This document shows positions 1 through 17,217 of a stretch of DNA of 25,272 nt, one piece after another. Each line of letters starts with the position of its first letter. The stretch's first letter is position 1. The stretch lies in the NCBI GenBank assembly GCA_964463515.1, contig CAYXDR010000001.1:1-25272 (forward strand), in the 5' to 3' direction. The translations under genes were made by a program, and so were the position numbers. Origin of the DNA: an uncultured Desulfobacteraceae bacterium. Its GTDB lineage: Bacteria; Desulfobacterota; DSM-4660; Desulfatiglandales; Desulfatiglandaceae. A model generated the notes under the pieces. That model ran no database searches, had not been told where the DNA came from, and saw nothing but the letters and a program-made list of their open reading frames with translations.

Positions 1-47
1 TTCACGTCAAAAGTCAAGAGTTTGGTTTTTGGAGGCCCATTTTGGCT

Positions 48-188
48 GCTGAGCCTCTCAAACCGCCCCCGATACAGGTGCATACGGGAGGGACTTCTCA
101 CCGCCGAGGGAGCCCCCTCAAAAGGCTCCCTCGGCTTGCCCCGTGCAGGTGACAACTACCCTGACACAGGGGGCCACACGAGGGCAGC
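48..188. other. Long imperfect inverted-repeat (rod-like) element with a perfect 12-bp core hairpin at 103-135, downstream of the last gene of the cluster
   Basis: GCCGAGGGAGCC (103-114) is the exact reverse complement of GGCTCCCTCGGC (124-135), with a 9-nt loop. Flanking segments can extend the pairing imperfectly (CCCCC/GGGGG, CAGG/CCTG, CTC/GAG). There is no U-tract after the stem on the minus strand, so it is not a canonical intrinsic terminator. Function unknown. Confidence 0.45.
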
Positions 189-208
189 TCGCACGGATCT
201 AGTTCGTT

Positions 209-3200
209 TTATTTAGGATTAAGAAGTTCATGAGCGATTATATCGTAAAATTCTTGTTTTAGTTTCTGTGGCAATTTTCGGAATTGGACTAGCAATCCTT
301 CCACCTTGAGATTCTCAAGACGTTTCTTAATGGTTATTTTCATTTCTTCTATTTTGCCATGATCGTCGGAGGTGAGGTAGATGGGGGCGGCTTCTAACCG
401 CGATAAGAGGCGCTGGCAATTAGCGGCCTCCATATTTTTAATATTTTCCTGAGACAGAAAAACCTCTTCAATCCATTTACTTGAACGTTTTTTTCGATCT
501 GCAAGGATATGTTCCATAAATTTATCATAGATATCTTCAGCATCTCGCCAAAGAGGAAGATCTTCGTCTTTTTCTTCTTCTGAATGGATCTGCCGGATTC
601 TTTCATCCAAGAATTGACGGAGCTCGTTTTCAGACTTTGACAAATCGTTCAAATAAGAGAAGTCCTGTTCAAATTGAGTGAGGCGGTTTTCCATTTTATT
701 CAGTTCCTCGATATCGAGGTCTTCCCCAGAAAAAATTGCCATCAGGTCACGAACTTCAACATGGGCAGCGCGAATATCTTCAATGTTTGAAAAAGTTCTG
801 TCGAAAAACTCATCGCATCGGTTTCGATGCTGTTTTCGCTGCTCTTTGCACGCTTTTTGAAAATCAGAAAGTCTTGCAATAGCTTTGTCAATTTCGGGCA
901 CATCTTTTGATTTTTTTGCTCTTTTCAAATCTTTAGTTAACTCGTTGCAGCGGTCTATCCATTCTCCTAAAGTAGCAATTTTGGATGTATCGGAAACGGT
1001 TTTTCCGACTAAGAACGCCTTGGCTTCATCTACGATAAATGAGACTTTCTGTCGATTTTCCATATCAGCGATGATTTTTTGAGTACGCTCCTCCAACTGA
1101 TTATAGAAATCAGTCAGGCCCAATTCTTTAAGATTGCCGCCGATTTTGTTGATCATTTTGTCTCGAAAACTGTCAATCCTTGCAAAATGGATACAGCTTT
1201 GATTTTGTAGCCATTCTTGAAAAAGACTTTCAACGGCTGCTTTCGCTTGATTGACTATTTGTTCAACTTGTTCCAATTGTTCGTCAGTCCATGCGTTGGA
1301 TTCAGTACTCATCTTTTTATATCGGTGGAGTGCATCTTTGCCAATTCGACTAATATTACCCACATCTTCTTTTTCAAAAGCACTTTGCAGGTATTTTAAT
1401 TCTCTTTCTATGAAATTATCGAACTCTTTTAGCGCTTTTTCAGATCTTTCAGCCTTCTCCTTCAAATTTTTCCATCGTTCAAGTAACAGATCGGACGACA
1501 ATGGAATACGGAGGTTCAACTTTTCTGCATCCCACATAAAATCAACGCATTTAGTATGTTCCGTTTCCGCTGTCCAACGTTCAAGAAGTATTTGCCATTC
1601 ATCTGTGTCGACCTGTTCGATTTCCGTTTCATCTAGTTTTTTTAGATCGAGAAACTTTTTTACAAACGCATTACTTAGCCATACAGACCATGAAATACTT
1701 TCGCCATTCCAAATCAGTGATAGGGATTCTACACGGGGAGATATAAACGAGCCAATCAGCATGCCGGCCGAAGCGATATTGAATCCATAAGGCGGGGCGA
1801 TCAGTTCATGTGCCATTTCACCAAGATTGAGTTTTTGATCTTTTTCAAGCCTCACCTCAAAATTTTCAATAATGTCTCTTAATTGCTGATGCTCAGGATA
1901 CCAGCTAATTCTACCGTTTTCCTTGCTTAACACATGCCACGTTAGGAGCAGCACCTGTTTTGCTCGTCTCTGGAGGTTCTCCTCTCGTCGCGAAAGCCAT
2001 TCTTCGTTCAGACTTCCCCTGAACAGTTCAGCCGTGATCTCCCGGCAGTAATCAGCCGCTTTCCCTTTTGTTGTTTTTAAACCATCGAACGGAAAGGGGA
2101 CGATATTGGGGTAGGTGTTTTCGAAAAGGGATAAGCAGACCTTCTCAATTTGGTAGTTTTTCGGTCGGAAATCCCGCGGAAAAACAAAATTGCCTTCCTG
2201 AATAAGAACCATGAATTCGTTTTGGATTTCCTGTGATACGCGATATTGTTGATCGTCGATAAAATTCTTATATGTTTGTTTTTCTTTCACACTCAAACCA
2301 TCTGAAAGAACCCAATACTCTGCGATCAGGTGCCTAAGTGCATCTGTTTTATCGTGTAGGATTGCGACGAAGACCGGCGCGACGGGAACCTCATTATTTT
2401 CGTTTATTAGCGTGTCTAATGTTCGCGACAGACGCTGGCGTACTTCATCGATCCGAGCGTCAGCGGGAACATAGCAATAGATGAGCTGACCTCTGTGCTG
2501 ATCCGGCCTGACAGCAGCCTGCCAATCCATTACAGCCTGGTTCATATCCTGATCGATGCGCATCCTGTTGGACAGCACTGTCTGAAAACGCCATTCCGAC
2601 GTGATGATATTGTATTCAGCGGCAAATTCCGGATCAATATTCTGATACGTTTCCAAATCAGCCCATTTCCAGAGGTGTAGCGTGAACAGATCCTCGACTT
2701 TATCCAAAGAGATTTCTTTGATCTTTTTGTCCAAAAACCTTGTAAAACGGCTTCGGGGAATCCCCTCGCTGATAATATCGTACCGGACAAAGCGATCATT
2801 CCATTCCAAGACGTTGTATTCATGGGTCAGCTCTTTGGCGATGCGATCGACTTGGGCCTTCGATTGACCGGAAAGATGAGCCAGCGCCTGGTGGTAGTCG
2901 GTTTGATCAACGGCTCGCAGTCCCATTTTATCCGCAACTAGGATCGATAGAAGGACGCGCCGTTCTGTGTCCTTGAAATCATGTTGGTAACGTTCTTCTA
3001 CCGCCGAATAGGCATGGGCAAGCGAGCTGCTAGTAGCGAATTCCTCGGAACCGATCAGTTCCCGCAACAAAGGATCGTTGAGGCCGCGTTCCATCTGAAA
3101 TAGGGCTGTAGCCGGCAGGGTCCAGTCTTCCGGGGATTTATTTAGATTCCGATCCGATTCCTTCCGTAGCAGGGTGTCAATAAAGGTGACAGCAGACCTT

Positions 3201-4540
3201 TGCTGTAGTTGATTCCCTAACCGGGTCAGGAAAAGGGTAGCCATAGGGTGCAATGGCCAACAGCCTTTGACGATGGTCTGGAAAAACGGATCGGTTTCTC
3301 GCCAAACGGCATCTTTGTGGGTTTGGGGAAACCAGCTACCTATGGCGGCATGGATGGCTTCCCATTGATCTTTGGCATTATCAGAAAGTAATCGTTTTTC
3401 AATGAGTGTTGGCTGTTTTTTTTCGATCAGGTGGGCAAACAGAGTTTCCAGGTTCGATGATAGATAGTATTTTCGTGCCGCGTCATACCGACCAACATAT
3501 CTTTGTATTACATTGCGTTTTTCACTGGACACACGAGAAATATAGGTTTTCAGCTCATACTGAATAGTGCAAAGCATGAAACATCGCTCGGCGTTGTCCT
3601 GAACCCCCTCAAATACCTGCTGAAGGGCAGCGTCACCGGCTACATGGGGCTTCTCGATTGCAAACTCTAGGTAACGGCCGAATTCATCGAATAGGATCAC
3701 GAGGCCTTGAAACGGGCCGTTGTCGCCGCAATACTCCTGGCACACTGTAGTGATCAACTGATTGGCGGACTCGGCACCGGATACCCGAATGGACTTCCCG
3801 ATGGCCGCTTCATAAATTCCATTGACCTGTTGAAACGTCGATTCGTTGTGACTTCTTAGATCATGCTGTATTGTCTCTGATTCGATGTCAGGGCCGAATA
3901 CCTTCTCAAATTCTGATCGCCACTTTTCGAAATTTCGTTCGACAAACGCCTCCGCATCCTGGAAGCGTGGCCAGAGATCTTCTACCGGTGTCGTATCCAG
4001 ATTCCTCGCCCGGAGTTGAGCCAGCACCTGTCGACTCAACTCCTCGGCTAGGTTGAAATCTGTCATGCCGTTGATGGGCAACACCAGGAATGGACGGTCC
4101 CAATCATCGACTTGGTTGTGAATCTCTTTTCCAAGAGCAGGGCTAGCATGTTCGATATTGTTGAGGATTACATCTGCGATCGATTCCGACGGCGCAGACA
4201 ACAAGCTGGCCAAGGTCAGGGCATAATGGGATTTTCCTGCTCCATACCCAGCGATGGCCAGGGTGATGGGAAACCGATCATTTCTGCCCGGCGTCATTGC
4301 CGCCAGCAATTCCGAGGTCAGAGAAACCGTGTCGATTAGGGCATAGCTTTTGGCCCCCTCCTTGTCCTCATCTGTGACGCCGAAGTATTCAGGGCCGTGG
4401 AAAACGAAATTGGCACTAGCCAAATCTCTCTTTTGGGGGTCCGTTTCAAACCAGTCGATTTGAACCGCGCCTCCGAAGAAAAGGTCGTGACGAAAGCCGA
4501 TTGCGTCTTTTAATTGGGCCATAGGACCTCCCAAAGACAT
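209..4540 (-). CDS. Large SspC/BrxC-like P-loop ATPase (second copy) with a long K/E-rich helical C-terminus, 1443 aa
   Basis: Walker A AGYGAGKS (about 4229-4252) and Walker B LFDEFG (about 3677-3694). The downstream CWPLHPMAT...QQRSAVTFI block parallels FFPLHPLTA...NDRTLFAFL in the 1156-aa ATPase. It follows a DUF4007 gene. The true start may be the second Met at 4522, which has GGAGG just upstream; the ATG at 4540 has no SD-like sequence. Confidence 0.8.
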   Translation of the reverse strand: MSLGGPMAQLKDAIGFRHDLFFGGAVQIDWFETDPQKRDLASANFVFHGPEYFGVTDEDKEGAKSYALIDTVSLTSELLAAMTPGRNDRFPITLAIAGYGAGKSHYALTLASLLSAPSESIADVILNNIEHASPALGKEIHNQVDDWDRPFLVLPINGMTDFNLAEELSRQVLAQLRARNLDTTPVEDLWPRFQDAEAFVERNFEKWRSEFEKVFGPDIESETIQHDLRSHNESTFQQVNGIYEAAIGKSIRVSGAESANQLITTVCQEYCGDNGPFQGLVILFDEFGRYLEFAIEKPHVAGDAALQQVFEGVQDNAERCFMLCTIQYELKTYISRVSSEKRNVIQRYVGRYDAARKYYLSSNLETLFAHLIEKKQPTLIEKRLLSDNAKDQWEAIHAAIGSWFPQTHKDAVWRETDPFFQTIVKGCWPLHPMATLFLTRLGNQLQQRSAVTFIDTLLRKESDRNLNKSPEDWTLPATALFQMERGLNDPLLRELIGSEEFATSSSLAHAYSAVEERYQHDFKDTERRVLLSILVADKMGLRAVDQTDYHQALAHLSGQSKAQVDRIAKELTHEYNVLEWNDRFVRYDIISEGIPRSRFTRFLDKKIKEISLDKVEDLFTLHLWKWADLETYQNIDPEFAAEYNIITSEWRFQTVLSNRMRIDQDMNQAVMDWQAAVRPDQHRGQLIYCYVPADARIDEVRQRLSRTLDTLINENNEVPVAPVFVAILHDKTDALRHLIAEYWVLSDGLSVKEKQTYKNFIDDQQYRVSQEIQNEFMVLIQEGNFVFPRDFRPKNYQIEKVCLSLFENTYPNIVPFPFDGLKTTKGKAADYCREITAELFRGSLNEEWLSRREENLQRRAKQVLLLTWHVLSKENGRISWYPEHQQLRDIIENFEVRLEKDQKLNLGEMAHELIAPPYGFNIASAGMLIGSFISPRVESLSLIWNGESISWSVWLSNAFVKKFLDLKKLDETEIEQVDTDEWQILLERWTAETEHTKCVDFMWDAEKLNLRIPLSSDLLLERWKNLKEKAERSEKALKEFDNFIERELKYLQSAFEKEDVGNISRIGKDALHRYKKMSTESNAWTDEQLEQVEQIVNQAKAAVESLFQEWLQNQSCIHFARIDSFRDKMINKIGGNLKELGLTDFYNQLEERTQKIIADMENRQKVSFIVDEAKAFLVGKTVSDTSKIATLGEWIDRCNELTKDLKRAKKSKDVPEIDKAIARLSDFQKACKEQRKQHRNRCDEFFDRTFSNIEDIRAAHVEVRDLMAIFSGEDLDIEELNKMENRLTQFEQDFSYLNDLSKSENELRQFLDERIRQIHSEEEKDEDLPLWRDAEDIYDKFMEHILADRKKRSSKWIEEVFLSQENIKNMEAANCQRLLSRLEAAPIYLTSDDHGKIEEMKITIKKRLENLKVEGLLVQFRKLPQKLKQEFYDIIAHELLNPK

Positions 4541-4616
4541 TATGAGCCAAGATGAAAGTGATTCAGGTATTCATATGAATAGCGGCATCATTCCCGATCA
4601 TAGGAAAAATCATAGT

Positions 4617-5456
4617 TTAACTAACAATTCGGGATGTTAAATCCGCTGCCGCCATTTTACGTGTCAACACCCAGGGCTGCATCTGCTTGTCAATGGATAT
4701 AGCTCCGGTTGTCTGAATCGATGTCAGCGCCTGTTCACGTTGGGTATCGTTCCATCCATGAAGTCGTCCCCAAAAAGTTTCAGTCTCTAGATCGGATGCG
4801 GCTGCCTGACGGTCGCCAGGAAAATGCTGGTCCCACAAAGTTAACAGAAACCATGCCCAGCCATTGGCAAACTCGGGTGTTAGTGGGGCCGGGTTACGCC
4901 GCATGACGTTTTTCTCTGTGATGAGCGCACCGGTTTTTTTTAGGGCTGATGGCTCTTCATAAGTGCGTTGAAGGGGGCCGATGAGAGACCTATTTGCGAC
5001 GCCGAAAAGGCCGGATAGGTATTGATCCAGGATCTGACGGTCAAACTGGCGGCCGAGAACATCGCTGCCTGGCCCAAACGTGCGAAACCATATTTCCGCA
5101 CCGCCCCGGCGTCGACATAAATTCAGATGCAACAGCCACTGGTTGACTGCCTCCGATAGCTGGGGATCTTTGCCCAGCAGTGTTTCTCCCCACGCAGTAG
5201 GGCGAACTTGACGGTTCACACCCTTTCCTTTAGTGACAATCAACTCCATTCCCTGAGCGTATTGCAGGATTGAAGGGACTTTGCCGCTGGATTTGCCGGT
5301 AGGGATGCCGGTTTTTTCCGAGATTTGGGTGTTATCGCCATATCCGTCTTCGGCGGCAAACCGGAGCAATGCCGACAGATAATGTCGCTCCGGGACAAAG
5401 GTCTGGTGGAATCTCAATGCGAGACGGTCTTTACTTCTTTTGCCTGTTTCAGTCAT
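4617..5456 (-). CDS. DUF4007-family (SspB-like) protein, second divergent copy, 279 aa
   Basis: N-terminal RFHQTFVP matches the F.HETF motif of DUF4007. KDPQLSEAVNQWLLHLNL parallels WDPYLEDPASLWLLHW in the first copy. The start overlaps the upstream stop (ATGACTGA, 5449-5456). Confidence 0.75.
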   Translation of the reverse strand: MTETGKRSKDRLALRFHQTFVPERHYLSALLRFAAEDGYGDNTQISEKTGIPTGKSSGKVPSILQYAQGMELIVTKGKGVNRQVRPTAWGETLLGKDPQLSEAVNQWLLHLNLCRRRGGAEIWFRTFGPGSDVLGRQFDRQILDQYLSGLFGVANRSLIGPLQRTYEEPSALKKTGALITEKNVMRRNPAPLTPEFANGWAWFLLTLWDQHFPGDRQAAASDLETETFWGRLHGWNDTQREQALTSIQTTGAISIDKQMQPWVLTRKMAAADLTSRIVS

Positions 5457-8400
5457 TATCGCTATCCTTTTTCAATCGTTCTTGAAGAGAGGAGATATGA
5501 ATCTTGAAGATCTTGTTCTCCAGTTCGCCGGCCCCGGGGTTCAAAGTCGGCCCGAGCGAATAGCATTCGCCTCTGTTCAGTTTATTGAGGCGCGCTATCC
5601 ATGTTTCAGCTTTCTCATAACTACCTTGCTCCAGAATCCTTGCGTATTCTTTGACCTCAGTCTCTGCTGGTTTGAAAAAGAGCTTATGGGATGCCTGAAA
5701 AAGACGATCACGTTCTTCGCCCTTGAGATTACTCAGGGTCTGAGTGGCGAGAATCAAAGAGAGGCCGAACTTACGGCCTTCGGTAAGAAATTTCCCCAGG
5801 GGTGCATCTAGTCGATGGTCGAGATTCTGGATTTCGTCCAGAACGATGGGCAGGGGCACATCTTTTCGGCCTGAATTCGCGGCGTAATCATACAGATCCC
5901 ACAGAATGAACTCCGTCGCGATCCGGGCGATGTCCCTAGGAACGCCTGCCAACTGGAGGATATTTGCCCTGACCTCGCCGGAACCATACAACCTGTCCCA
6001 GTTCCCGGCCTCATCCTGCCCGAATAGCTTCATATGCACCATCGGACTCAATTTGTTGGCGAGGGTGAGCCCAGATGCACCCTGTTCCTTCAGCCGTTCC
6101 AGCAGCGCGGGGAATCGGAACTCCGCCCCCTCTTCGTCCAGTCCTGCCGCGATGGTTTCAATCAACACCGCCCGCTGCTGTTCCCCAACGTTCGAGTAAA
6201 CCGAATTGATCACCGTGGCGATGCGCCCCCCTACTGTGTGCGAATCTTCCGGTATGGGATCGAATCCAGTAATTCGCTGCTCTTGCTTTCGGAACGGGTT
6301 AATGGGCAACGGCTTTTGACGGACCAGGTGGGTCTCGGGCTTCAAGATATCGACGACTACGGGCTCCAGATGGTCGGGTAGAAACCCGTTGGTGTAATCG
6401 ACGATGATGGAGTTCTGGCCATTCAATCCCATTTCCAGGAGCAAGGCTTGAATCGCGTAGGTCTTTCCTACTCCGGATTTACCAAAAATAAGGATATGGC
6501 GATTGGTCAGTTCCGGATGCCCGAATTCCCAGTATATCTCCCGTTTGGCATCCGTTACGCCCAAGAAGAGGCGATTCGGCGGCGTGCGAGTTACAGTGGT
6601 CGATATAGGGGAGGTAGTTTCACCCTTTTCTAATGATTCCCCGCCCTCCTGTTGGGAGCCGGGCGTCCCATCATCCTGGTCTTTTGTCTCTGCAGATGCA
6701 GATTCCTCTGCAGGAGAAAGAGTGTCAGAAGGCTCAATGGGTTGTGATGTGGACGCCAAATTTGCGGCCGTTAGCGCTTGAGGAGACGATGTCGGAGGTG
6801 TTTCCGAAGACTTAAGGGGAAGGGCGACAGGGTAGTTGCCGCGGCCGATCCGCCGGATAAGGGCGCCCCCGCAGGAAATGAGCGGAATGGCGATTTCGCA
6901 ACCCTCCTGCTGAAACGACCATACTTCTACCGTTTGAAAGAAGTCGCTATTGTAATAATCGGTGGGTTCCGTCCATATCGTGAGTGCCGCCGCCTTCCAT
7001 TGAATCCGAAACCGCCCTTCGCCCAATGATTCCAGCGCGGTGGTAGCCAATTCAAGCTCCGCATTTTCCACCACTGCCTTGCTGGCGATCAACCGTTGTA
7101 GCTGAGCCCACCAGAAACGTTGATCAAAACGGAAAATCGGACTTGAGCCACTAAACCGGTAAGCGGCCTGATTCGATTCACCGCCTTTGGGCCTAAAACG
7201 GGCAACCAGATGATGCAATCCGTTCTCGAGCTGGGACCGGGCCTTCTGGATATGGCGATTGATATTGCTAGAGATTTTGCATTCCAGAATGGTCGCATGG
7301 ACATCGATGAGCCCATCTTCGGCCAGCGACGCGCTGATTCTTAAGAGATCGGGATACATTTCCCGCCCGCCGCCAATGCTTGTAAACCAGTGGGGAAAGG
7401 CGTCTAGCACGACTAATTCGTCGCAAAGGGTTGGGCCGTTGTGCGCCATTACCGGCAAGCAGCGCCGCACTAGGGCATAGGCAATCAAATCCCTGACCTG
7501 TTCGCCTCTGCCTGTAGCCCGTACCAGAGAGATGCCGGAGAGCTTCCGGGCTTCCCGAACAAGAAATCGCGCCGCGTTTTCGGAATCCACTGGCTCCCAT
7601 GGACCGAACAGGTTGTTGACCCTTTTCTGGATCATCTTTTGTACATCTAGCAGGCTCGCGCGTTCAGTAGAGAGGGTGTAGTTCAATTCACCATGCGTGC
7701 CGACCCCGGAGGCAAAACCGATGATCTCCCTTTTACCCTCACTCTGAGCGTCAAGGCTCCCTTTTTGGATCAGCCGTGTGTCCACCGACGGGTCCAGGCA
7801 AAGGACCCATGAAGCATTCCGGTGCATCTGATCCACTATTTTTGCCCAGGGCGTGAAATCGCTCTGGCTGAGGACGATGTGCTCCCGGTCAGGGGGAACG
7901 TCCGAACTCCACAAGCGAACACTTAATTCTGAATGGAGTGCAGCCAGCCGGAACCGCCGGTTGCTGATGATGCGTGATCGGAGGTTTGGGAATGATTGGC
8001 GCTTGTCTTCGCACCGGGGCGCTTCTAGAATGGGAAACTTGAGAAGGTGATCGAGATCCGGTTTATATGGAGAAGTCTTTTCATAATTTAAAGACGGTTC
8101 GCCGGTATCCATAAAACGGGTGAGGACAGCGATATCGACGTTCGCTGCTCCATTTTTCATCAGGATCAAGTAATCGTCAGGCTGGGTGATCACCTTCTGC
8201 GAAACGGAAAGACGGCAGTTTTGATAAAATTCATAGCGCGTGGCCCCTTCAGCTGGATCCCAGCGTTTTCTCCATTCGCTAAGCCACCGGGAGACCTCGC
8301 CGCTTTCTGCTACGTGCATGAAAAGGGAGAGGGAAAGATGGTACGGTGGATAATCCCGGGCTTCTTCGGCCCGTTCCTTCTTTAATTTTTGGTGGAGAAA

Positions 8401-10821
8401 ATCATCTACCCCGGCGATGATCGCCTGGATGTTGGCCGGGTTCAACACGACCAGGGATATACCGTCTTCTGCATGGGGATAGATCCGCGCATATTCCTTG
8501 AGGATTTGGGAAATGACCCGTGATTCGCGGGTTTCCCGAAACAGCGCTGCGTCCTTGATGTCGTCGTCTTCGGGCGTGTCGTACTGCTGAAGGATTTTCG
8601 AGGAAAGCGGTCCGCTTTGGGCGGGCGGTTTTCCCACAAGGTGAATGTGGCCAAAGGAAGCGACTCGGGTGTCCAGCGCCCCGGTTGGAGTCGAAACGAG
8701 ACCGAACAACGGATAGTTGATGGTGGCTAGGTCGCAGATGTCCCGCCAGGTATTTTCAGTAATTTTGGTGCTGCTGTCGTCGTTCAGAAAAAACGTCGCC
8801 CGTTCCAGCCACGCATGGGCTAGAAACGCTTCCCGGTGATTGAGCATGCCCATGAGGGCGGGGTGCAAGGCGGTCACAGCGGCATGAGGGACAAACCGCG
8901 CCCAGGGAAAATTGGCGGCCTCTTCTGCCTTCGGTTTTTCGGTCAGCAAAAACGCCTTGTAAACAATGGGCCGGAATCTCTGAAATTCCGTTTTCTGGAT
9001 CAAATTTTGGATCACGTTTTCATATCGGTAATACAACCGACTGCCGTCGATCCAATGATCCTGAAGGGCGGAAAAGTACCCTTCATCGACCATCGCCCCC
9101 AAAAATTTGGCATAGGCGTCAGACAGGTCCGCTATCCCCAGCTTGCTCAGGTCTTTCAGGTCGATGTTCTGCAAGTTTTCAAACAGGTTGGCAATCGTCA
9201 GTTTGCTTAGCCCCGCACGAAGCACCCGGTGGATTTCGGTCTCGTCCGGCGCGAAAAACAGTTCAGGGTAGTGCTGAATGTGGTATACTGGCAGCCAGAA
9301 ACTGGGCTTCTCGACTTCATGGATCGCCCTGGCCATGTCCAGAAGATTCCGAAACGGATGGGTTTCCGGAAGCGCCCACTTGAATTTGCGGCGGACGCTG
9401 AGGCCTCTGATGTCTGATTTGAAGAGAATGTCAAACTGGAAATGGGGAACCGCGGTTTTTGTCTGGCCAAAAGGAAGGCTATCCATATCCAGCAATCCGG
9501 AGGAAAACTCGGCGTTGTCTTTCCCTTCTTCGGATTCCGGGGCTATGGGGCCGATGTATTTTTCCAGAAATGCGTCGATGCCCCCCAGCAACCCCCGTGC
9601 GAGCTCCTTGTTGTCGTTGTCGAAATCAACAAATTTTAAACCTCTGAGATAAATTCCCTTCAACGCATCAAAGGGTTGGATGGGGGATTTCTTTTTCCGT
9701 GTGCATTGAAATCTAAAATCGATGAGGGTCTGCCACAGTGCGGTTAAAATCGCTTCCAAAGGCGGACCATGAAGGGTTTTGAAGCCCTTGGGTTCTTTGA
9801 TTTTGTCCTCTTTGCCCTCGTCCTCGTCTTCCTCAAGTTCAGGTTCAGGCTGCGTATAGGTGTATCCGAGGATTTCATCCTTGAGCACGGCGAAATCGAA
9901 ATGGAGCAGCCGCCTACGGGCTTCTGGATCGTTGTACTCAACATAGATTTTGATGCAATCGAGGAGTTCATCTTCGCCCCCGAAGGCACCGCGAAGGTCG
10001 AGCGTAGGCTCTTTGTTCGGCCGGACCCGGAAGTCTTCCACTTTTTGGATGGCTTTTTTTCTGTCGTTCTCGTTGAAATATTTCTGATAACTAAAAAAAT
10101 CGATGGCAGCTTCAACATATTTTTTCCACTTGCTCCCTTTCATCTTGTGGAGAAACGGAAGCCCCCAGAAGGACAGGTTGCCGTAAAAAGCGGTCAGGGC
10201 GGCGTAGCTATCCATGACGCTAGTAAAATCGATCCATTCCAGAAAATCGGATATGCGAATCAAGTCGCCGGCCGCATGACGGCGAAGGGTTTCCAGGAGT
10301 TCTTCCATCGCCTCCAAGTGGGTCTCTTCCGGATCGATTTGCTTGTCGTACAAAAACCTTTCCAGCCAGCCCTTGAACCGGCTTTGCATCTCTTCTTTCC
10401 AAATTGTGTCTACCCCTACCTGATAAAAGTCTTCCAGACTGCCCTGGTCCGTAGCCTGCTCGACTCCAACCAGCATCACGATCAGCCCATCCTTCCCGGA
10501 TTCAGGTGTCCACTCAAGGTTTCTGTAATGCGTGAGCCGGTTTTCCGTGTCCACCCACCCGGCACTTTTGATCTGCTCCAAAATCTGTCCATCTGCCGTT
10601 TCTTCCCATTGCCGCCAGAGCTTGTAAGCGACTATGAATTGGAAGTCGATGTCTCGTTTGCTTTTTAGCCAGTATTCAGAGAGTTCGTTCCCAACTTCTT
10701 TGACCGCCGCGGGCGGTAGGGAGGAAAGAAACACGCGGAGTTCGCGGGTGTTGCGGTTTTTGAGGATAGGATGACATAGGGTTTTCAGATAAGTCAGAAG
10801 ACTCCGTGTAAAATAACGCAT
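5449..10821 (-). CDS. sspH: DndH(DptH)/SspH-like restriction protein with a PD-(D/E)xK nuclease motif and a C-terminal HerA/FtsK-type ATPase, 1790 aa
   Basis: C-terminal HILIFGKSGVGKT Walker A (6460-6483), IIVDYTNGF, IVLDEIQNL Walker B, and EGRKFGLSLILATQ (arginine finger and sensor of HerA/FtsK). YPDLL...ILECK lies at 7276-7353. Its size and third position after F- and G-like genes fit DndH/SspH. Confidence 0.72.
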   Translation of the reverse strand: MRYFTRSLLTYLKTLCHPILKNRNTRELRVFLSSLPPAAVKEVGNELSEYWLKSKRDIDFQFIVAYKLWRQWEETADGQILEQIKSAGWVDTENRLTHYRNLEWTPESGKDGLIVMLVGVEQATDQGSLEDFYQVGVDTIWKEEMQSRFKGWLERFLYDKQIDPEETHLEAMEELLETLRRHAAGDLIRISDFLEWIDFTSVMDSYAALTAFYGNLSFWGLPFLHKMKGSKWKKYVEAAIDFFSYQKYFNENDRKKAIQKVEDFRVRPNKEPTLDLRGAFGGEDELLDCIKIYVEYNDPEARRRLLHFDFAVLKDEILGYTYTQPEPELEEDEDEGKEDKIKEPKGFKTLHGPPLEAILTALWQTLIDFRFQCTRKKKSPIQPFDALKGIYLRGLKFVDFDNDNKELARGLLGGIDAFLEKYIGPIAPESEEGKDNAEFSSGLLDMDSLPFGQTKTAVPHFQFDILFKSDIRGLSVRRKFKWALPETHPFRNLLDMARAIHEVEKPSFWLPVYHIQHYPELFFAPDETEIHRVLRAGLSKLTIANLFENLQNIDLKDLSKLGIADLSDAYAKFLGAMVDEGYFSALQDHWIDGSRLYYRYENVIQNLIQKTEFQRFRPIVYKAFLLTEKPKAEEAANFPWARFVPHAAVTALHPALMGMLNHREAFLAHAWLERATFFLNDDSSTKITENTWRDICDLATINYPLFGLVSTPTGALDTRVASFGHIHLVGKPPAQSGPLSSKILQQYDTPEDDDIKDAALFRETRESRVISQILKEYARIYPHAEDGISLVVLNPANIQAIIAGVDDFLHQKLKKERAEEARDYPPYHLSLSLFMHVAESGEVSRWLSEWRKRWDPAEGATRYEFYQNCRLSVSQKVITQPDDYLILMKNGAANVDIAVLTRFMDTGEPSLNYEKTSPYKPDLDHLLKFPILEAPRCEDKRQSFPNLRSRIISNRRFRLAALHSELSVRLWSSDVPPDREHIVLSQSDFTPWAKIVDQMHRNASWVLCLDPSVDTRLIQKGSLDAQSEGKREIIGFASGVGTHGELNYTLSTERASLLDVQKMIQKRVNNLFGPWEPVDSENAARFLVREARKLSGISLVRATGRGEQVRDLIAYALVRRCLPVMAHNGPTLCDELVVLDAFPHWFTSIGGGREMYPDLLRISASLAEDGLIDVHATILECKISSNINRHIQKARSQLENGLHHLVARFRPKGGESNQAAYRFSGSSPIFRFDQRFWWAQLQRLIASKAVVENAELELATTALESLGEGRFRIQWKAAALTIWTEPTDYYNSDFFQTVEVWSFQQEGCEIAIPLISCGGALIRRIGRGNYPVALPLKSSETPPTSSPQALTAANLASTSQPIEPSDTLSPAEESASAETKDQDDGTPGSQQEGGESLEKGETTSPISTTVTRTPPNRLFLGVTDAKREIYWEFGHPELTNRHILIFGKSGVGKTYAIQALLLEMGLNGQNSIIVDYTNGFLPDHLEPVVVDILKPETHLVRQKPLPINPFRKQEQRITGFDPIPEDSHTVGGRIATVINSVYSNVGEQQRAVLIETIAAGLDEEGAEFRFPALLERLKEQGASGLTLANKLSPMVHMKLFGQDEAGNWDRLYGSGEVRANILQLAGVPRDIARIATEFILWDLYDYAANSGRKDVPLPIVLDEIQNLDHRLDAPLGKFLTEGRKFGLSLILATQTLSNLKGEERDRLFQASHKLFFKPAETEVKEYARILEQGSYEKAETWIARLNKLNRGECYSLGPTLNPGAGELENKIFKIHISSLQERLKKDSDND

Positions 10822-10844: not shown

Positions 10845-12527
10845 TTATTTATCAGTGCTCTTTTCAGAAAACGGGTTTTCAATCAACGACACAGCATCTG
10901 ACAGCGGGGTCATAAAACCGGTGGCCAGCAACTTTTCTTCCAGCCATTGTTTGTGCCCGGCTGGCGCGCTCAGCTTCTGGTCGGGGTAGGTCCAGGCGAT
11001 GGCGTCGTTGAGCAAGGTTCCGGAAACCGCCGCGCCGTAGTGGCGGTAGAGGGCTTTCAGGAAGGTGGTCAAGCGCATCCGTTCGCCCGGCGGGATCAAG
11101 GCCAGTACAAAATACCGAAGCAAATTTTCTTGCAGCACGAAACGGGCGCCTGGCCCGGTTTTAGGGGCGATCAGGCCGATTTTCTTGCCCAATTTCACAA
11201 AAAGAGCCGTGCCCTGTTTGTCGGCATTCCGGTAGGTTTTTTCGCCGCTCTTTAGCGTCTGAATGCGACGGGTCCGGAGTGCGGCATGGAACATTTCCTT
11301 CACCCTGACCAGATTTTTCCGGGCGGCGGTTTTGAGAGCCCGGTCATCCAATTCGGGGTTCGTGATGATCCAGGCGTAGGGCTGGAGAGCGTCTTCGTCA
11401 TGAAGACCGGGATTGCCCCCCCAGTAGCGCCCGGCTTGGGCCGACAGGCTGCGTAGGACCTGGAACACGCAGCAAAGTTTGAGCATCTCGATTTTTTCCA
11501 CAGGGTCTAATAGCGCGGCGCTAATGTTTCGCAGTTCTATGGCGAACAGATAGGCTTCCGGCCAGCTTTCTTCCGGGCACCAGCCACATGTCGCACCTTT
11601 GGTCTCCCGGTCGATTTCTAAGGATGCGTCGGTCTCATTTTTTTCAATCCACGATGCGATACTGTTCAATATCGGGGCAGGTTTGCGAGATAGAAAGTCT
11701 TTGAGATTGTTTTCAATCTCCTCTTGGAGATTCTTCGCAGCGCCTGGGTAGCCCGCCCGTTCTTCAAATTCAAGGAGCTCGGGGGAATCTATCAGGCGGA
11801 AGAGATTGCATAGCTGAAGGTATAGGAGTTCGCCACCGCGGGCGAGGAAATCATGTTTGGAAAATGAAAACATTCTATTTTTCCAGGCTTGATGCCAATT
11901 CAAATTCGGTTCTTTCTTGCCTCTATTTTTTTCCCAAATGGCTTCTCCTGCGATTAATTCGGGAGCTAGTGGAATAAATGAATGTGCGGACCAGCCTCTA
12001 TTTCCCGAAACCCCTATAAATCCCATTAGAACTTGCTCAATTAATTCGATAGCGTCGCTTTTTGATAGGGATGGACTAGTATGTAAATGGTGTTTTAGAT
12101 TTGAAACTAGCTCTTGATATTTTTCAATGTGGCTTTTGTGCCTTCCTTCAACACCTGAAATCCCTAAAAACGAAAACAGCTTTATAATTATGTGCATTCT
12201 AGGATAATAAATCAAAGGTTTACCTGGGTCGACTTCTTGTAATTCACTAACTCTTGGAAAGCCTTTCCATTTATCTGAGTCTTTATACCCAAGCATATAA
12301 TTCGTTCCAATTTTTTTATCTGAAATAAAAATCAGCATGAATTCCACAAGATATTCGAGCTCTGTTTGATCATCTCGGACTCGTCGTCCAAACAATCGTA
12401 TAGCAGGATTAGCATCAGCGTTTTCATCCTCACCAATGTTTGGAAACTGCCTAACGTTACCGTTCGAAATTCTAGCGGATGACTTCAATTCCAATCCATT
12501 TTGCCATTGAAAATAATCCGATGGCAT
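10845..12527 (-). CDS. sspG: DndG(DptG)/SspG-like protein, 560 aa
   Basis: It lies between the F-like and H-like genes (gaps of 49 and 23 bp). The C-terminus (FLKALYRHYG...LEEKLLATGFMTPLSDAVSLIENPF) resembles the winged-helix-type tail seen in G-position proteins of DndFGH-like modules. Assignment rests on recalled motif plus synteny. Confidence 0.6.
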   Translation of the reverse strand: MPSDYFQWQNGLELKSSARISNGNVRQFPNIGEDENADANPAIRLFGRRVRDDQTELEYLVEFMLIFISDKKIGTNYMLGYKDSDKWKGFPRVSELQEVDPGKPLIYYPRMHIIIKLFSFLGISGVEGRHKSHIEKYQELVSNLKHHLHTSPSLSKSDAIELIEQVLMGFIGVSGNRGWSAHSFIPLAPELIAGEAIWEKNRGKKEPNLNWHQAWKNRMFSFSKHDFLARGGELLYLQLCNLFRLIDSPELLEFEERAGYPGAAKNLQEEIENNLKDFLSRKPAPILNSIASWIEKNETDASLEIDRETKGATCGWCPEESWPEAYLFAIELRNISAALLDPVEKIEMLKLCCVFQVLRSLSAQAGRYWGGNPGLHDEDALQPYAWIITNPELDDRALKTAARKNLVRVKEMFHAALRTRRIQTLKSGEKTYRNADKQGTALFVKLGKKIGLIAPKTGPGARFVLQENLLRYFVLALIPPGERMRLTTFLKALYRHYGAAVSGTLLNDAIAWTYPDQKLSAPAGHKQWLEEKLLATGFMTPLSDAVSLIENPFSEKSTDK

Positions 12528-12576: not shown

Positions 12577-15500
12577 TTACACAATTTCCAAAAAACCGTC
12601 CGACAGCATCACGCGAAATTGTTCCAGTTTTCCATCATGATTCAGTTGAATTAACCGCATCTCTTCGTGAGATTCGCTAGGGAGTCGGGCTGTGAGTAAA
12701 TTTTTAAACCACTCAAGCCGATCAAGGTAACCCAGATTCAACCGCTGTCCGAGTTCCCCTTCGCTGCGCAACAGCACGAAATCTAGAAATGGCAGATCAA
12801 GGGTCAAGTGGATTTCAGGGAAATAACGGTCTCGCAAAACAAGATGATATCGCTGTGGCCTGAATGTTTGGTAGATTTCCTCTAGAACCAGCTCAAAATT
12901 TGAAAAGGCGATCTCCGCAAGAAGAATCTGGACGCTCTGGCGAAGTGCTTCGTTACGTCGGTTGAGAGTAATGAACAGTTCGTTTCCGCGCCGGGTCTCC
13001 GGGATATAAAAACCCGTGTACTGCTCCAGTAGCACGTGCAACACTTTTTGCTTCAACTCTTCCCGACGTGTAGGCGTTAGTTTCGTCGGCGAGCATTGCC
13101 AGGATTCGGTTTCTACCAGCATGGGGGAGCCAGTGAACCCGCCTACGAAGTCCTTCTCACTCCCTGCTTCTGCAAATGCGCCGAACACAAAAAAGAGTCG
13201 CCTGAACTCCTGGCGGAAACGGGCGCCGACGGCCTCGGACCCATAGCCGGAAAGCGTCATTCCCCGAAGGCTCTCGAAAACTGGTTTCAGCGTGTCCGGC
13301 AGTAGAGGGGTCGGGCCCTCTTCGAAAGTCCACAGCACCCTGTCTAACGACAAAAAGGGTCTGGCGCCCATCTCTATCGGCATCAGACATTGAATAGCTT
13401 TGAGTCGCTGGGCCTTTTCATCTATAGAAGCGCCGTGAAACCCAAAGAAGCGATTGTAAAACAAATATGCGTTGACAGGCGGGGGCTTAGGGCTTTCAGC
13501 TATTTCCCGAATGCGCCCACAGTCTAGCCCGCCCGTCAGGCTATATGCTAGATGAGCCGACACCTGCCGCAAGGTCAATCGTTTGCCGTATTCATACAGC
13601 AGGCGATAAATCAAGGCGATCCGTTCCGATGTTATTTCATAGCTCTCCCGAATTGCTTTAAGATTCATCTGAACGGGGCAATGGGCATAAATATCGCACG
13701 ACCGGCACCCGTCCCAATTCTCGTTATCGACGAGCCGATGAAAAAGTTCCCGGGAGATTTGAAGGTTGTCGAGCTGCGACAGGTTGATCAGGACAAAGGG
13801 CACGCCAAGGTCCTTGAATTTCGTGGGTTCTTTTTCCCGGAGAAGTCCTAGAAGACTGTTGCCGATTTTGATTTCTGTGAGACCGTAGGCTGGGGCACAC
13901 GCTTCTAAGATCTCCAAAAGACGACCCGTGTTGGAAATGATCAGCCACCGCCCATCTCCTTGGGCAGCTCGGTTTAGAGCCCTTGCAGCTTCTTCGTCGG
14001 TCAGCTCACTCAAGTCCTTGATCAGGTGTATTTTATAGCCGTTGATTTGTTTTTCTTCATGGGACCCCAAGCCGGATTCTAAAGGCTCTGACATGTCCTT
14101 TTTTTCCAGCCTTTTAAAGATTTCCAGGCAAATCGTTGATTTGCCGTCCCCGGCATGCCCGGTCAGGATAATGTTCCCCCCATCGGTTCCTGTCAGCTTT
14201 TCCCACACCAGATCGGTCACGGGCCAGGCGACATGGATGGATCCGAAAAACAGGCTCCGAGCTTGGGCCTCAGCCAGCGCATTACGATTGTCGGCGGTGG
14301 TGTTGTGAAGCTGGTTCAAATAATCCAAGAAATTGCCTGCGGTCTCTAGCGCGTTTTCCCTTGCAGGCGGTGCTTCAGGGCTATACACGTGCCATTTTTC
14401 CGCCGATTCCGCCGTTTGTGGCGTCACTTGGACCGAGTCCTCATCGCTGAAAACAAAATCGAATTCATCTCTCATTTCGTTGATATTTTGAAAGCGTGCA
14501 TCACGAAACGGCTGAACGGCCTTGTGAAGCCAGAGTGAAAGCTCCTCTGGAATGTCCTTGCGATAGGAAGCTGCGAAACGCGGCGTGGCGGTAAGGGCAG
14601 GGGTCCCGGAATAAGGACTGACGCCGCACAGCCATTCAAACAGGGTGACGCCTAGGGCAAATAAATCTCCACTTTCGCAAAACTCATACTCGGCGCCCTG
14701 GAACAAATCTGGTGCCACATAGGCGTCTGTTCCCATATAGGGCCCTACGGATGGAACGCCCGAAGCACCGAAGTCGATTAATACAGGGGTGCCGTCCTCT
14801 TTGAGGAGTATGTTGTCGGGTTTGATGTCGTTGTGCAAAATGATGGTTTGGCGCGAGGGATCGGCATGCAAAGTCGCAATTCCTTCCATCAGACAAAATG
14901 CGACATGCCGGAAAAGGGGCAGTTCCGGGCGAATGCTGTTGTCGATCCGGTTTCGCAGCGGATTGCCGGAGACCAGTTCCAGAACCAAGTAATAGCGGCC
15001 ATCTGCCAATTGGTTGAAGGTTTCATAGCCGACAATACAGGGATTGGATACGGTTTTTAGGGCATCCCTTTCGGCGAAAATCCGATCAAGAGCCGAATCC
15101 TGGTGGTACAATTTTATCGCAACCCAGTTGTCGCTGCCCTGAAGCGCTTTGTAAACTTGGGAGTCGCGGCCTTTCCCGATCCATTCTTGAATGGTGTACA
15201 CACCGAAAATATCGCCTGGTTTTAGGATTCGATTGGATTCTCGGTGGGTTTCTTCAGCGATTTCTTTCAGTTCAAGCTGTAACTCGCCGATTTCCTGGGG
15301 CCGGTCCTTTCGTTGGAATTGGATCATCATGACGATGTCTGTTCGAAGGGATTCAGGAATGCCGATTTTGGCCAGTTTTGATTCGATAGATTCATACACG
15401 GATTGAGCGTCGGATATCAGATCCGTGGAATACTCGAAAGGCGGTTTGCCGATGAGCAGTTCATACGCTATAACCCCTAAACTGAAGATGTCCGTTGCCT

Positions 15501-17217
15501 CCGCAAAAGGCTGATGATGGTAAAGTTCCGGGGCGAGGTAAGGGGACCTCTGAAGTTGGAGGTCGTCGGGAAGAACCGTCAACCGGTTATCTTCAGGCAA
15601 GTAGGACAGATCGAAATTCATCAGTTTTGGCGTAGTCCCAAACATCATGATGTTTTCCGGGGTTAAATTGCGATGGACAATGCCTTCCTGATGAACAGCT
15701 TCAAGACCTTTGGCAATGCCTCGTATGATAGGCAAGGCCTTTTCAAGAGAAAAGGGGCCGCTTTTCTTCATCACATTGGCGAGCGTACCTTCTTTTCGAG
15801 ACCAGTCTGAAGCTTCGATAATCAGGCCTTCTTCATGATAAATGTCCCAAACCTTCAAAATGTTGGGATGATCACTTATCCTAGTCAGTGCTTTGAGACT
15901 GTTTCGGCTTTTGTTCCGCTGGTTCTCCCGTTCTTCCTGGCCTAGAGTGGGATCGATGGAAAAAATGCGGAGCCGCTTGACGGTTTGGAGCTGATTGCTG
16001 GTAGGTCTTGCCAATAGTTCAATGAGATGCTGCGAGTCAGTGAGATTTTCCAAAATCTCATAGCCCGGAATCTCGAGGCCCTTCCGCCGAGGGGATTGGG
16101 CTTCGTTGCGGAGGCGTTCCGCAATCTGCCTAGCTTGGGCGGTGGTCAGTATGGAATTCGGCTGCCCTAGGCAGCGTTTGAAATATTTCGTAAAGGTGGC
16201 AATGCTGTCGAAGGTAGGGGCTTTTTTTTCCGTTTTCGCTCCATCGGCGTTGTGGACCGTAGCATCCGGGTTTGTCAGAAGAACAATAGATTGAAAGGGA
16301 TAATCTTTAGGTATAAAGGGAAGTTTCTTTCTGCAAAACCCTCGCAGAACTTTTGCTTTGTAGTTGTTGGAGCGATGCGGATCTGTACATGGGGTCTGTT
16401 CGGGCCCCCTGAACCATTCGTAGGGGCGAACTTCGATTTCTCCGAACCAGTGTTTAAGTTCGACAATGGCTGTACAAAAGGATGAGACTACAATAAGGTC
16501 GCATTCAAGGTATTGGCTGGTAGAAGGGTCGTAAAGATCGAAGTTGGGGATTAGTTCAATTTGCTTTCCGAGAGCAGCGAAAATTTGTTTGAGAGCATTT
16601 TTTTCATGAGGAAATTTGCTTTTAATGTCCATATATTTTCTTCCTGATGCCATCATTACACGTGCTTTTGAATCACTAGTGATATCTGAATAATCAACAC
16701 TTGATTGCTCTTCCAAATTACTCTTGATTGCTTCAACATGGTATTTTGGAGAAAATATTGGTCCGGAAGAAACAATTTGAGATATTATTTCTTCTAATTT
16801 CGACTTGATAACATCACGATATCTTTTTGTTTTCAAAAGATTATACACATCAGGATTCAAAAATGAATAATTTATAATTTCATTGATCAATCTTGGTGTA
16901 AATCTTTTACGTTTGTTATATTCATTTTCTTTTCCTTGAAACACCTTGTGATTCCAAAAATTTGATGTGATAAGATGGTAATATGGATATTCAGGAAAAC
17001 ACTCATCTTCATTGGTGAATTTTTTCCATAAATATCTAAACATATTGATCAGTTCATCATCAAACGGAAAGCGATTCTCACGATTCGGATTTTCTTCAAT
17101 TAAATAACAGATTGAAAGAAGCAACACAAATTTATTTGGATTTGCTTTTTCAGATGACTTCCAAACGGATATCCTATTAATTTGTTTTAGTAATTCATCT
17201 ATTTGCAAATCAGACAT
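12577..17217 (-). CDS. Multidomain fusion: SBD-like domain + NERD nuclease + pseudokinase + Ser/Thr kinase + DndF/SspF-like P-loop domain, 1546 aa
   Basis: Residues about 1-145: NKFVLLLSICYLIE...EYPYYHL...FW. About 196-345: FPHEKNAL, ECDLIVV, IVELKHW (NERD). Kinase 1 has HRN(515-517) and NFD(534-536). Kinase 2 has IGKGRDSQVY, VAIK702, HNDIKPDN (H795) and DFG (D815). The C-terminal part has IILTGHAGDGKS (K1026), IKDLSE, ISNTGRL and a C..C.....CP cluster. The start overlaps the sspD stop by 19 bp. Confidence 0.8.
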   Translation of the reverse strand: MSDLQIDELLKQINRISVWKSSEKANPNKFVLLLSICYLIEENPNRENRFPFDDELINMFRYLWKKFTNEDECFPEYPYYHLITSNFWNHKVFQGKENEYNKRKRFTPRLINEIINYSFLNPDVYNLLKTKRYRDVIKSKLEEIISQIVSSGPIFSPKYHVEAIKSNLEEQSSVDYSDITSDSKARVMMASGRKYMDIKSKFPHEKNALKQIFAALGKQIELIPNFDLYDPSTSQYLECDLIVVSSFCTAIVELKHWFGEIEVRPYEWFRGPEQTPCTDPHRSNNYKAKVLRGFCRKKLPFIPKDYPFQSIVLLTNPDATVHNADGAKTEKKAPTFDSIATFTKYFKRCLGQPNSILTTAQARQIAERLRNEAQSPRRKGLEIPGYEILENLTDSQHLIELLARPTSNQLQTVKRLRIFSIDPTLGQEERENQRNKSRNSLKALTRISDHPNILKVWDIYHEEGLIIEASDWSRKEGTLANVMKKSGPFSLEKALPIIRGIAKGLEAVHQEGIVHRNLTPENIMMFGTTPKLMNFDLSYLPEDNRLTVLPDDLQLQRSPYLAPELYHHQPFAEATDIFSLGVIAYELLIGKPPFEYSTDLISDAQSVYESIESKLAKIGIPESLRTDIVMMIQFQRKDRPQEIGELQLELKEIAEETHRESNRILKPGDIFGVYTIQEWIGKGRDSQVYKALQGSDNWVAIKLYHQDSALDRIFAERDALKTVSNPCIVGYETFNQLADGRYYLVLELVSGNPLRNRIDNSIRPELPLFRHVAFCLMEGIATLHADPSRQTIILHNDIKPDNILLKEDGTPVLIDFGASGVPSVGPYMGTDAYVAPDLFQGAEYEFCESGDLFALGVTLFEWLCGVSPYSGTPALTATPRFAASYRKDIPEELSLWLHKAVQPFRDARFQNINEMRDEFDFVFSDEDSVQVTPQTAESAEKWHVYSPEAPPARENALETAGNFLDYLNQLHNTTADNRNALAEAQARSLFFGSIHVAWPVTDLVWEKLTGTDGGNIILTGHAGDGKSTICLEIFKRLEKKDMSEPLESGLGSHEEKQINGYKIHLIKDLSELTDEEAARALNRAAQGDGRWLIISNTGRLLEILEACAPAYGLTEIKIGNSLLGLLREKEPTKFKDLGVPFVLINLSQLDNLQISRELFHRLVDNENWDGCRSCDIYAHCPVQMNLKAIRESYEITSERIALIYRLLYEYGKRLTLRQVSAHLAYSLTGGLDCGRIREIAESPKPPPVNAYLFYNRFFGFHGASIDEKAQRLKAIQCLMPIEMGARPFLSLDRVLWTFEEGPTPLLPDTLKPVFESLRGMTLSGYGSEAVGARFRQEFRRLFFVFGAFAEAGSEKDFVGGFTGSPMLVETESWQCSPTKLTPTRREELKQKVLHVLLEQYTGFYIPETRRGNELFITLNRRNEALRQSVQILLAEIAFSNFELVLEEIYQTFRPQRYHLVLRDRYFPEIHLTLDLPFLDFVLLRSEGELGQRLNLGYLDRLEWFKNLLTARLPSESHEEMRLIQLNHDGKLEQFRVMLSDGFLEIV

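Follow-up and report, generated by a model that had tools for sequence, protein, structure and literature searches.

Introduction

Giant ATPases of the SspC/BrxC type are shared by DNA phosphorothioate (PT) systems and by bacteriophage exclusion (BREX) systems, and their roles in marking and in restriction have been hard to separate because one protein does both. SspB is reported to be a nickase and SspC the ATPase of the PT writer (summarised in PMC12602166); in BREX, BrxC forms ATP-regulated dimers and heptamers, binds DNA and serves BrxB:PglZ as a hub, and its hold on DNA is reduced by BrxA, which binds to it (PMC13326643). The PT-linked restriction modules, SspFGH and DndFGH, are described as three-gene systems. 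Here we analyse a stretch of 25,272 nucleotides (nt) that constitutes the entire contig CAYXDR010000001.1 in the metagenome-assembled genome (MAG) of an uncultured Desulfobacteraceae bacterium (GCA_964463515.1; the stretch is hereafter the window, and the sequence left of base 1 lies outside this assembly). Beside a complete PT writer and relatives of F, G and H, the window encodes a second, highly divergent pair of SspB- and SspC-like proteins, which we denote B2 (279 amino acids (aa); 4617-5456, minus strand) and C2 (about 1440 aa; 209-4540, minus strand), or jointly pair 2, the canonical SspB and SspC of the writer being pair 1. In our assessment, to which we attach a probability of about 0.65, pair 2 is neither a spare nor another modification pair but forms the constant 3' end of a restriction module of five genes, F-G-H-B2-C2, which stands beside an exchangeable PT writer consisting of SspB-SspC-SspD, sometimes with SspA.

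Connections between PT-dependent restriction and BREX have already been noticed. DndH and PglZ have in common beta-sandwich domains and, at the N-terminus, an inactive Swi2/Snf2 domain (PMC12839542), and the NERD-pseudokinase-kinase block of PglW recurs in some of the DndF proteins (PMC12839542, PMC10853773). The latter article, a 2024 reappraisal of Dnd, treats DndFGH as a strict three-gene unit, notes kinase-fused DndF variants and, in the sections considered here, makes no mention of a following SspB/SspC-like pair; its supplement mentions neither the relevant genomes nor DUF4007 or SspC. A 2026 survey of BREX describes a different, rare system with DUF4007, DUF6079, HerA/FtsK, PglZ and STAND components (PMC12839542). 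Full-text literature searches for DUF4007, DUF6079, SspFGH, and DndH together with BrxC and PglW returned no paper describing the five-gene module. The constant association of pair 2 with the restriction genes rather than with the writer genes points to a five-gene restriction module that is new to the literature.

A second, remote pair of SspB- and SspC-like proteins

All large open reading frames (ORFs) of the window are on the minus strand and, according to Pfam and PADLOC, follow one another in the order of transcription as YhcG/DUF1016 nuclease, SspB, SspC, SspD, F, G, H, B2 and C2; the genes from sspB to C2 make up a single operon. So what are the two proteins at the end of this array? 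We judged the relationship between the paralogue pairs by profile, hidden Markov model and fold comparisons, given that the rooting of trees was judged unreliable at about 20% identity; family profiles were compared because BLASTP between the paralogues is marginal, with an E value of 6e-6 for B2 against SspB and of 0.012 for C2 against SspC.

B2 scores 24.3 bits against Pfam DUF4007 (PF13182), over residues 17-147 only and below the gathering cut-off of 27, and a precomputed PF13182 match is found in about half of the listed B2 homologues. At the level of profiles, the B2 family (47 sequences) aligns with the SspB family in hhalign with a probability of 94.6% and an E value of 7e-8 over 212 columns. 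The AlphaFold model of B2, which is of high confidence (predicted local distance difference test score (pLDDT) 92.9; predicted template modelling score (pTM) 0.92), consists of three helix-strand modules, and a Foldseek search of the PDB with this model retrieves only the SspB crystal structures 6LB9/6JUF (probability 1.0, template modelling (TM) score 0.73, 16% identity), the next match having an E value of only 3e-3. B2 is thus predicted to adopt the full-length SspB fold with its three winged-helix modules. The motifs FHQTF (residues 16-20) and DPQL...WLLH (97-110) of B2 correspond to RHETF and DPYL...WLLH of SspB. The glutamate of RHETF, invariant in the four aligned writer-type SspB sequences, is replaced in the B2 family by Q, R, M, D or N, with the H and F of the motif retained, and nothing in B2 corresponds to the stretch of SspB around EIECPF; these two features hint, at the level of motifs, that B2 may only bind DNA. 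A kinship of B2 with G was considered and ruled out, there being no profile relation between the two (probability 0.2%).

The C2 ORF comprises 1443 codons for amino acids, and the true start is more likely the ATG at 4522, giving a protein of 1437 aa, because this codon is preceded by GGGAGG and the product then agrees in its N-terminus with the family and as a whole with the 1437-aa entry of the protein collection. C2 has no Pfam match and, among the PADLOC models, matches only those of SspC (residues 255-448, E 8e-17), with no BrxC model at E 1e-3. The C2 family aligns with the SspC family in hhalign with a probability of 96.6% and an E value of 5e-10 over 721 columns (C2 65-935, SspC 32-828), so that the profile match spans far beyond the P-loop. 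The motifs GYGAGKS (98-104), DEFG (285-288) and PLHP (429-432) of C2 correspond to PYGMGKS, DEFG and PLHP of SspC, and the Walker A residues G100, G102, K103 and S104 as well as the Walker B residues D285 and E286 are invariant in 46 members of the C2 family. The AlphaFold2 model of residues 1-1200 has a pLDDT of 87.5 and a pTM of 0.51, the packing of its domains thus being uncertain; its best PDB matches are the Acinetobacter BrxC structures of 2026, 9ZN5/9ZLL/9ZDX (E 3e-7 to 6e-6; Foldseek TM by target 0.44-0.55), followed by ORC/Cdc6. The relatives of C2 among AlphaFold-DB clusters and Atlas neighbours are, likewise, BrxC, PglY or DUF6079 proteins. Taken together, these matches place C2 with the SspC/BrxC-type AAA+ ATPases that belong to the ORC/Cdc6 clade. 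The Pfam and Foldseek searches recognised neither a nuclease domain nor an effector domain of another kind in B2 or C2.

The C2 family is large: in the collection searched, there are more than 1,300 matches of about 1,430 aa, annotated only as hypothetical, from at least seven phyla including the culturable Marinobacter, Thioalkalivibrio and Desulfofundulus, and the Atlas cluster has about 2,060 members. The 3' third of the C2 gene (window 1-2000) is richer in AT than the rest (GC 0.40-0.43 vs about 0.50), and the part of the protein that it specifies is the one least conserved across the family, a long helical C-terminal region with few invariant columns within residues 1110-1349.

An earlier note on this DNA, prepared from the sequence alone, had proposed that DUF4007 and the large ATPase each occur twice with a common order of motifs and that the duplication is not recent. 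All these points hold. DUF4007 is recovered at 266 bits in SspB and below the threshold in B2, yet the profile comparison and the SspB fold leave both as members of one family; the ATPase is present twice by virtue of the 721-column alignment; and the order of motifs is common to both pairs as stated. The pairwise identity between the paralogue pairs is about 20-28% over short stretches: the two pairs are ancient paralogues.

Linkage of pair 2 to F, G and H

The gene that precedes B2, H (5449-10821, minus strand), encodes a DndH/SspH-like protein of 1790 aa whose C-terminal ATPase domain is of the HerA/FtsK type (Pfam DUF87 and TrwB_AAD_bind at 1437-1640; PADLOC DndH, E 1e-54, residues 1373-1750, and SspH, E 9e-19, residues 966-1221). 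Upstream of H lie G (10845-12527, minus strand), a 560-aa SspG-like protein (PADLOC SspG, E 8e-16, residues 432-553), and F (12577-17217, minus strand), a 1546-aa fusion of a sulfur-binding domain (SBD), a NERD domain, a pseudokinase, a kinase and an SspF/DndF core. The NERD domain and two Pkinase domains of F are found by Pfam, and PADLOC matches the protein to PglW (E 1e-58) and SspF (E 7e-34, residues 962-1293). The SBD has no Pfam match and shows up as a similarity of F residues 24-143 to SBD-Hga (8H0L; E 1.2e-16), in the part of F (residues 1-145) encoded at window 16783-17217. The restriction module therefore has a PT reader of its own, and pair 2 need not supply one.

How strictly is pair 2 attached to these genes? 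We collected 80 C2-centred metagenome loci and identified their ORFs by means of profiles derived from the window and its relatives. B2 is directly upstream of C2 in 66 of the 67 loci with enough sequence, and every locus whose contig reaches far enough has H (57 of 57), G (38 of 38) and F (37 of 37), with constant order and strand throughout. The genome loci that are fully visible tell the same story: all 17, from Desulfobacterota, Bacillota, Bacteroidales and Gammaproteobacteria, have F-G-H-B2-C2. In a sample of 400 other genomes of the phylum of the window, the C2 and G profiles match the same three genomes with complete systems; in one more (G390), all that is present is a fragment of C2 where a contig ends, and a further one is G279, discussed below. 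The scan of genomes with the G alignment yielded only 7 loci, its patterns being overly specific; the G-centred locus is cut by a contig end in five genomes, and all five have C2 on another contig. Thus, the co-occurrence of the second clade with FGH that the earlier note had named among its checks is observed wherever the contig reaches, with L016 as the sole exception. In this locus (1-5749), C2, split by a frameshift, has neither B2 nor H upstream and is preceded by a SocA/Panacea antitoxin, a 152-aa ORF of no known kind and the Zn-binding tail of an MrfA-type helicase; it is probably a decayed remnant in a defence island.

The junction between H and B2 is as tight as the earlier note had it when it spoke of translational coupling: the TGA of H (5451-5449) and the ATG of B2 (5456-5454) overlap by 8 nt (ATGACTGA, 5449-5456, minus strand, by direct reading of the sequence). 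The median spacing is -4 nt between H and B2 across 63 related loci and 12 nt between B2 and C2, and since tight spacing is general across the operon, the overlap is no special sign.

Several loci depart from the common layout in ways of their own. A candidate case of G without C2, genome G279, was dismissed as a counter-example: SspC is in fragments there, and the contig breaks off within a B2 that carries a frameshift. The locus (C1:3700000-3720810; L106, L107) belongs to a near-complete genome with the same array and a truncated SspC, no C2 was found in the assembly, and it is either a decaying locus or an assembly problem. In L006 (11792-13313) and L014 (3188-4709), two loci that are related to each other, a ParA-like ATPase of 309 aa (AAA_31) and a 164-aa fragment of DUF4435 are located between B2 and C2, which looks like a small element lodged within the module. 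In Desulfofundulus kuznetsovii (L003, 14748-18492), C2 is directly followed by a SIR2_2 protein and a DUF87/HerA-type ATPase; these neighbours resemble the SIR2-HerA defence pair and so place the locus in a defence island.

An exchangeable writer and a co-evolving restriction module

The writer of the window consists of SspB, the canonical DUF4007 protein (21881-22849; PADLOC SspB, E 3e-89), SspC, the canonical writer ATPase (18414-21884; PADLOC SspC, 1117 bits, full length), and SspD, the 3'-phosphoadenosine-5'-phosphosulfate (PAPS) reductase-type writer enzyme (17199-18092; PADLOC SspD, E 2e-92), all on the minus strand. Wherever both flanks are visible, F-G-H-B2-C2 is adjoined by a complete writer that has a canonical SspB and SspC of its own, in more than one arrangement. 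It is upstream and collinear in 14 loci (the window, L005, L008, G292, G318, G338, G279, L099, L101-L104, L010 and L011), the hosts of which include, besides the organism of the window and its 95% relative, Desulfobulbus, three other Desulfobacterota, several MAGs, Desulfofundulus kuznetsovii, D. thermosubterraneus, Thermacetogenium phaeum and Desulfolucanica intricata. In L069 (14367-21851), the writer is downstream of C2 and collinear with it, and contains a 594-aa BrxP-type PAPS reductase with a 4Fe-4S domain; the order is BrxP-type reductase, SspB, SspC, SspA, followed by a MerR/TipAS regulator. The opposite strand carries sspB-sspC-sspD, convergent on C2, in Marinobacter sp. JSM 1782161 and in Thioalkalivibrio sp. 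ALJ1, with an insertion sequence element between C2 and the writer in the latter, so that F-G-H-B2-C2 is, judging from the layout of the genes, a transcription unit of its own in these two loci. An sspA-like cysteine desulfurase gene is found between sspD and F in L104 (4187-5329). F itself varies as well: in Desulfolucanica intricata (L102, 7497-10004) it has only 835 aa and neither NERD nor kinase, and in L103 (5424-10001) it is split into three genes (NERD; kinase; kinase and F core), with pair 2 still present in both. The PT writer is exchangeable, and F-G-H-B2-C2 is constant.

The earlier note had observed that pair 2 has no PAPS-reductase partner and had allowed that another sspD-like gene just outside the window might complete it as an independent system. 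There is no PAPS reductase after pair 2 and only one SspD match in the whole assembly, and the 95% relative also has a single SspD. Homology with this relative ends about 15 nt past the C2 stop codon, after which the relative carries an unrelated PD-(D/E)XK protein. Of the metagenome loci, 41 extend past C2 by 1.5 kb or more, and L069 is the only one of these with an SspD-like gene in that stretch; the sspD-type genes beyond C2 in L069, Marinobacter and Thioalkalivibrio are parts of complete writers with their own canonical SspB and SspC.

Pairwise-distance matrices were computed for nine loci with all eight genes and over 37 loci. In the nine loci, F, G, H, B2 and C2 form a block with correlations of 0.88-0.98 (0.88-0.94 for pair 2 with F, G and H), and SspB correlates with SspC at 0.96, whereas the correlation of B2 and C2 is 0.65-0.79 with SspB and SspC and 0.40-0.44 with SspD. 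In the 37 loci, G-H (0.96) and B2-C2 (0.95) are the tightest, and the cross-pairs are at 0.86-0.90. Pair 2 co-evolves with F-G-H more than with the writer. Thus, comparative genomics supports the assignment, suggested in the earlier note, of pair 2 to FGH and of pair 1 to SspD.

A separate observation concerns sspD. The region that comprises sspD and the start of F (window 17001-18000) has a GC content of 0.345 vs 0.45-0.60 in its neighbours, and SspD distances correlate poorly with those of all other genes of the system (0.40-0.57). Both are features that repeated replacement of sspD would fit.

What does pair 2 do?

We propose, by analogy, that pair 2 probably loads FGH onto DNA and regulates it, as a unit of the BrxA/BrxC kind. 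By extension from BrxA/BrxC and SspB/SspC, C2 would bind DNA and assemble on it under the control of ATP, and B2 would bind C2 and set where or when C2 loads. Together, the two would form a DNA-loading, scanning and regulatory platform that brings the nuclease-translocase H and the sensor F onto DNA, and H and F would fire where the SBD of F finds no PT. A function that is performed by a single SspB/SspC (or BrxC) unit elsewhere would then have been split between a writer-specific and a restriction-specific pair of paralogues. A bolder and more tentative version, which we rate at somewhat below even odds, is that F-G-H-B2-C2 is a BREX/Pgl-like machine on a Dnd/Ssp chassis, with C2 in the place of PglY/BrxC, B2 in that of BrxA, F in that of PglW and H, by virtue of a PglZ-like N-terminus together with REase and HerA/FtsK parts, in that of PglZ, and with the BrxC-type hub, which in BREX serves marking and restriction alike, split into a writer pair and a restriction pair. 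If so, nature would have provided a separation-of-function system for the role of the BrxC/SspC-type ATPase in restriction.

The assignment of pair 2 to a five-gene restriction module rests on gene order, strand, writer swaps and co-evolution, and several considerations weigh against it. Each locus whose flanks are visible has a writer set next to the module, and a partnership with FGH therefore cannot be told from one with SspD by co-occurrence alone. The classical Vibrio SspFGH works in E. coli without such a pair (PMC8092258), which means that FGH-type modules need no pair 2 in principle. The position of the writer is seen in a minority of the metagenome loci, the flanks being short, and the distance correlations are descriptive only, the loci being few and interrelated. 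The prediction of a complex between B2 and C2(1-720), with a score of 0.01 against a mark of 0.32, gave no verdict, speaking neither for nor against binding.

Could pair 2 instead be mainly a brake, that is, an antitoxin-like regulator that idles a self-toxic F-G-H on host DNA and is dispensable for phage killing? Unrestrained SspFGH and DndFGH do harm host DNA that is unmodified (PMC8092258), BrxA does lower the DNA binding of BrxC, contacts between BrxB and BrxC balance idle against restrictive BREX (PMC13326643), and strict linkage fits an indispensable safety partner equally well as a loader. However, an ATPase of 1440 aa whose catalytic motifs are invariant would be an expensive brake, and the PT writer together with the SBD of F already provides self-protection, so we consider this scenario rather unlikely. 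It overlaps with the regulatory part of the proposed loading and regulatory role, and the data do not tell the two apart.

Two further alternatives detach pair 2 from restriction. It is improbable, in our view, that pair 2 is a second target-recognition and ATPase unit of the writer that shares SspD (along with SspA/IscS) and specifies a second PT motif, so that the cell would carry two marks. B2 and C2 are indeed homologous to two writer proteins, an SspD-containing writer adjoins in 17 of 17 loci with visible flanks, and SspD, being only loosely tied to every gene in its distances, could serve several partners; however, pair 2 is next to SspD only by accident of arrangement, stays behind H when the writer is of the BrxP type or on the other strand, co-evolves with F, G and H rather than with SspB, SspC or SspD, and has neither a conserved RHETF glutamate nor a counterpart of the EIECPF segment. 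More improbable still is that the two genes are a self-contained defence system or selfish element that just happens to be carried beside FGH in defence islands. That defence genes cluster, that a small element does insert here (the ParA-like and DUF4435 genes of L006 and L014) and that the C2 of L016 has neither B2 nor H are all compatible with such independence. Nevertheless, none of about 100 loci has the intact pair by itself or in different company, its position, strand and spacing (the medians given above) are fixed, it co-evolves as a block with F, G and H, the sole free-standing C2 is frameshifted, and neither protein has a recognised effector domain.

Other features of the window

The first gene of the array encodes the YhcG/DUF1016 PD-(D/E)XK nuclease (23523-24668; PADLOC candidate PDC-S02, E 1e-129), on the same strand as sspB and directly upstream of it; this gene is outside the eight-gene set that is conserved in the relatives. 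At the other end, directly 3' of the C2 stop codon, there are three GC-rich stem-loops (90-208, minus strand; RNA fold -57.2 kcal/mol, z -3.3, no T tail), which probably mark the end of the operon and of the island. Bases 128-173 of this region recur, with 89% identity, on another contig of the genome (C426, 2913-2959), which suggests a short repeated palindromic element at the island edge. A promoter scan of the window gave nothing above chance, with no site at the H-B2 or B2-C2 junctions.

Comparison with known systems

The module adds two obligatory components to an FGH-type system and ties Ssp/Dnd restriction to the architecture of BREX. It also offers an experimental handle, in that deletion of one paralogue pair should affect restriction without touching modification. 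In practical terms, annotation pipelines probably label pair 2 as a second SspB/SspC or as hypothetical proteins, so that systems are miscounted.

The SspB-SspC pair of SspABCD (6JUF/6LB9) resembles pair 2 in the full-length SspB fold of B2, in the alignment of C2 over about 720 columns that cover the AAA+ core and the following domains, in the order of motifs, and in the order of genes, a small DNA binder followed by a giant ATPase. The differences are substantial: identity is about 16-20%, with B2 below the DUF4007 threshold and C2 lacking a Pfam match; pair 2 has no dedicated PAPS reductase and is tied to F-G-H, with B2 always after H; C2 has a conserved N-terminal extension of 64 residues and is about 290 residues longer overall; and the RHETF glutamate is not conserved in B2.

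With BrxA-BrxC (PglY) of BREX, pair 2 shares the combination of a multi-HTH DNA binder and a giant ORC/Cdc6-clade ATPase that acts as the effector hub; moreover, the best solved matches of C2 are BrxC, F resembles PglW, and the N-terminus of H is said to be PglZ-like (PMC12839542), a point that rests on the literature given that an Atlas look-up of H residues 1-450 returned no usable match. Unlike BREX, the locus has no PglZ, PglX, BrxB or BrxL among the nine window proteins scanned, B2 matches SspB rather than BrxA in the fold search, and the mark is PT rather than methylation. As regards SspFGH (Vibrio anguillarum FF-93; PMC8092258) and DndFGH (PMC10853773), F, G and H match the SspF, SspG, SspH and DndH models, and the module adjoins sspBCD and presumably attacks DNA without PT, as those systems do. 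Three genes, sufficient in E. coli, make up those systems, whereas there are five here, with B2-C2 invariably attached; F often carries an SBD, NERD and kinase; and the PADLOC matches of F, G and H are partial and weak (E 1e-16 to 1e-54).

Finally, the BREX-related capture system (BRC; PMC12839542) has the same triad, in which a DNA binder of the DUF4007 type is combined with a BrxC-like ATPase and a translocase domain of the HerA/FtsK type. BRC, reported from only 45 taxa, has in addition PglZ and an active STAND NTPase encoded by genes of their own, and TGT and GNAT as optional components; the window and the related loci contain no PglZ and no separate STAND gene. In the module described here, by contrast, a DndH-like nuclease protein carries HerA/FtsK as its C-terminal domain, there is an F and a G, and the modification that goes with the module is PT.

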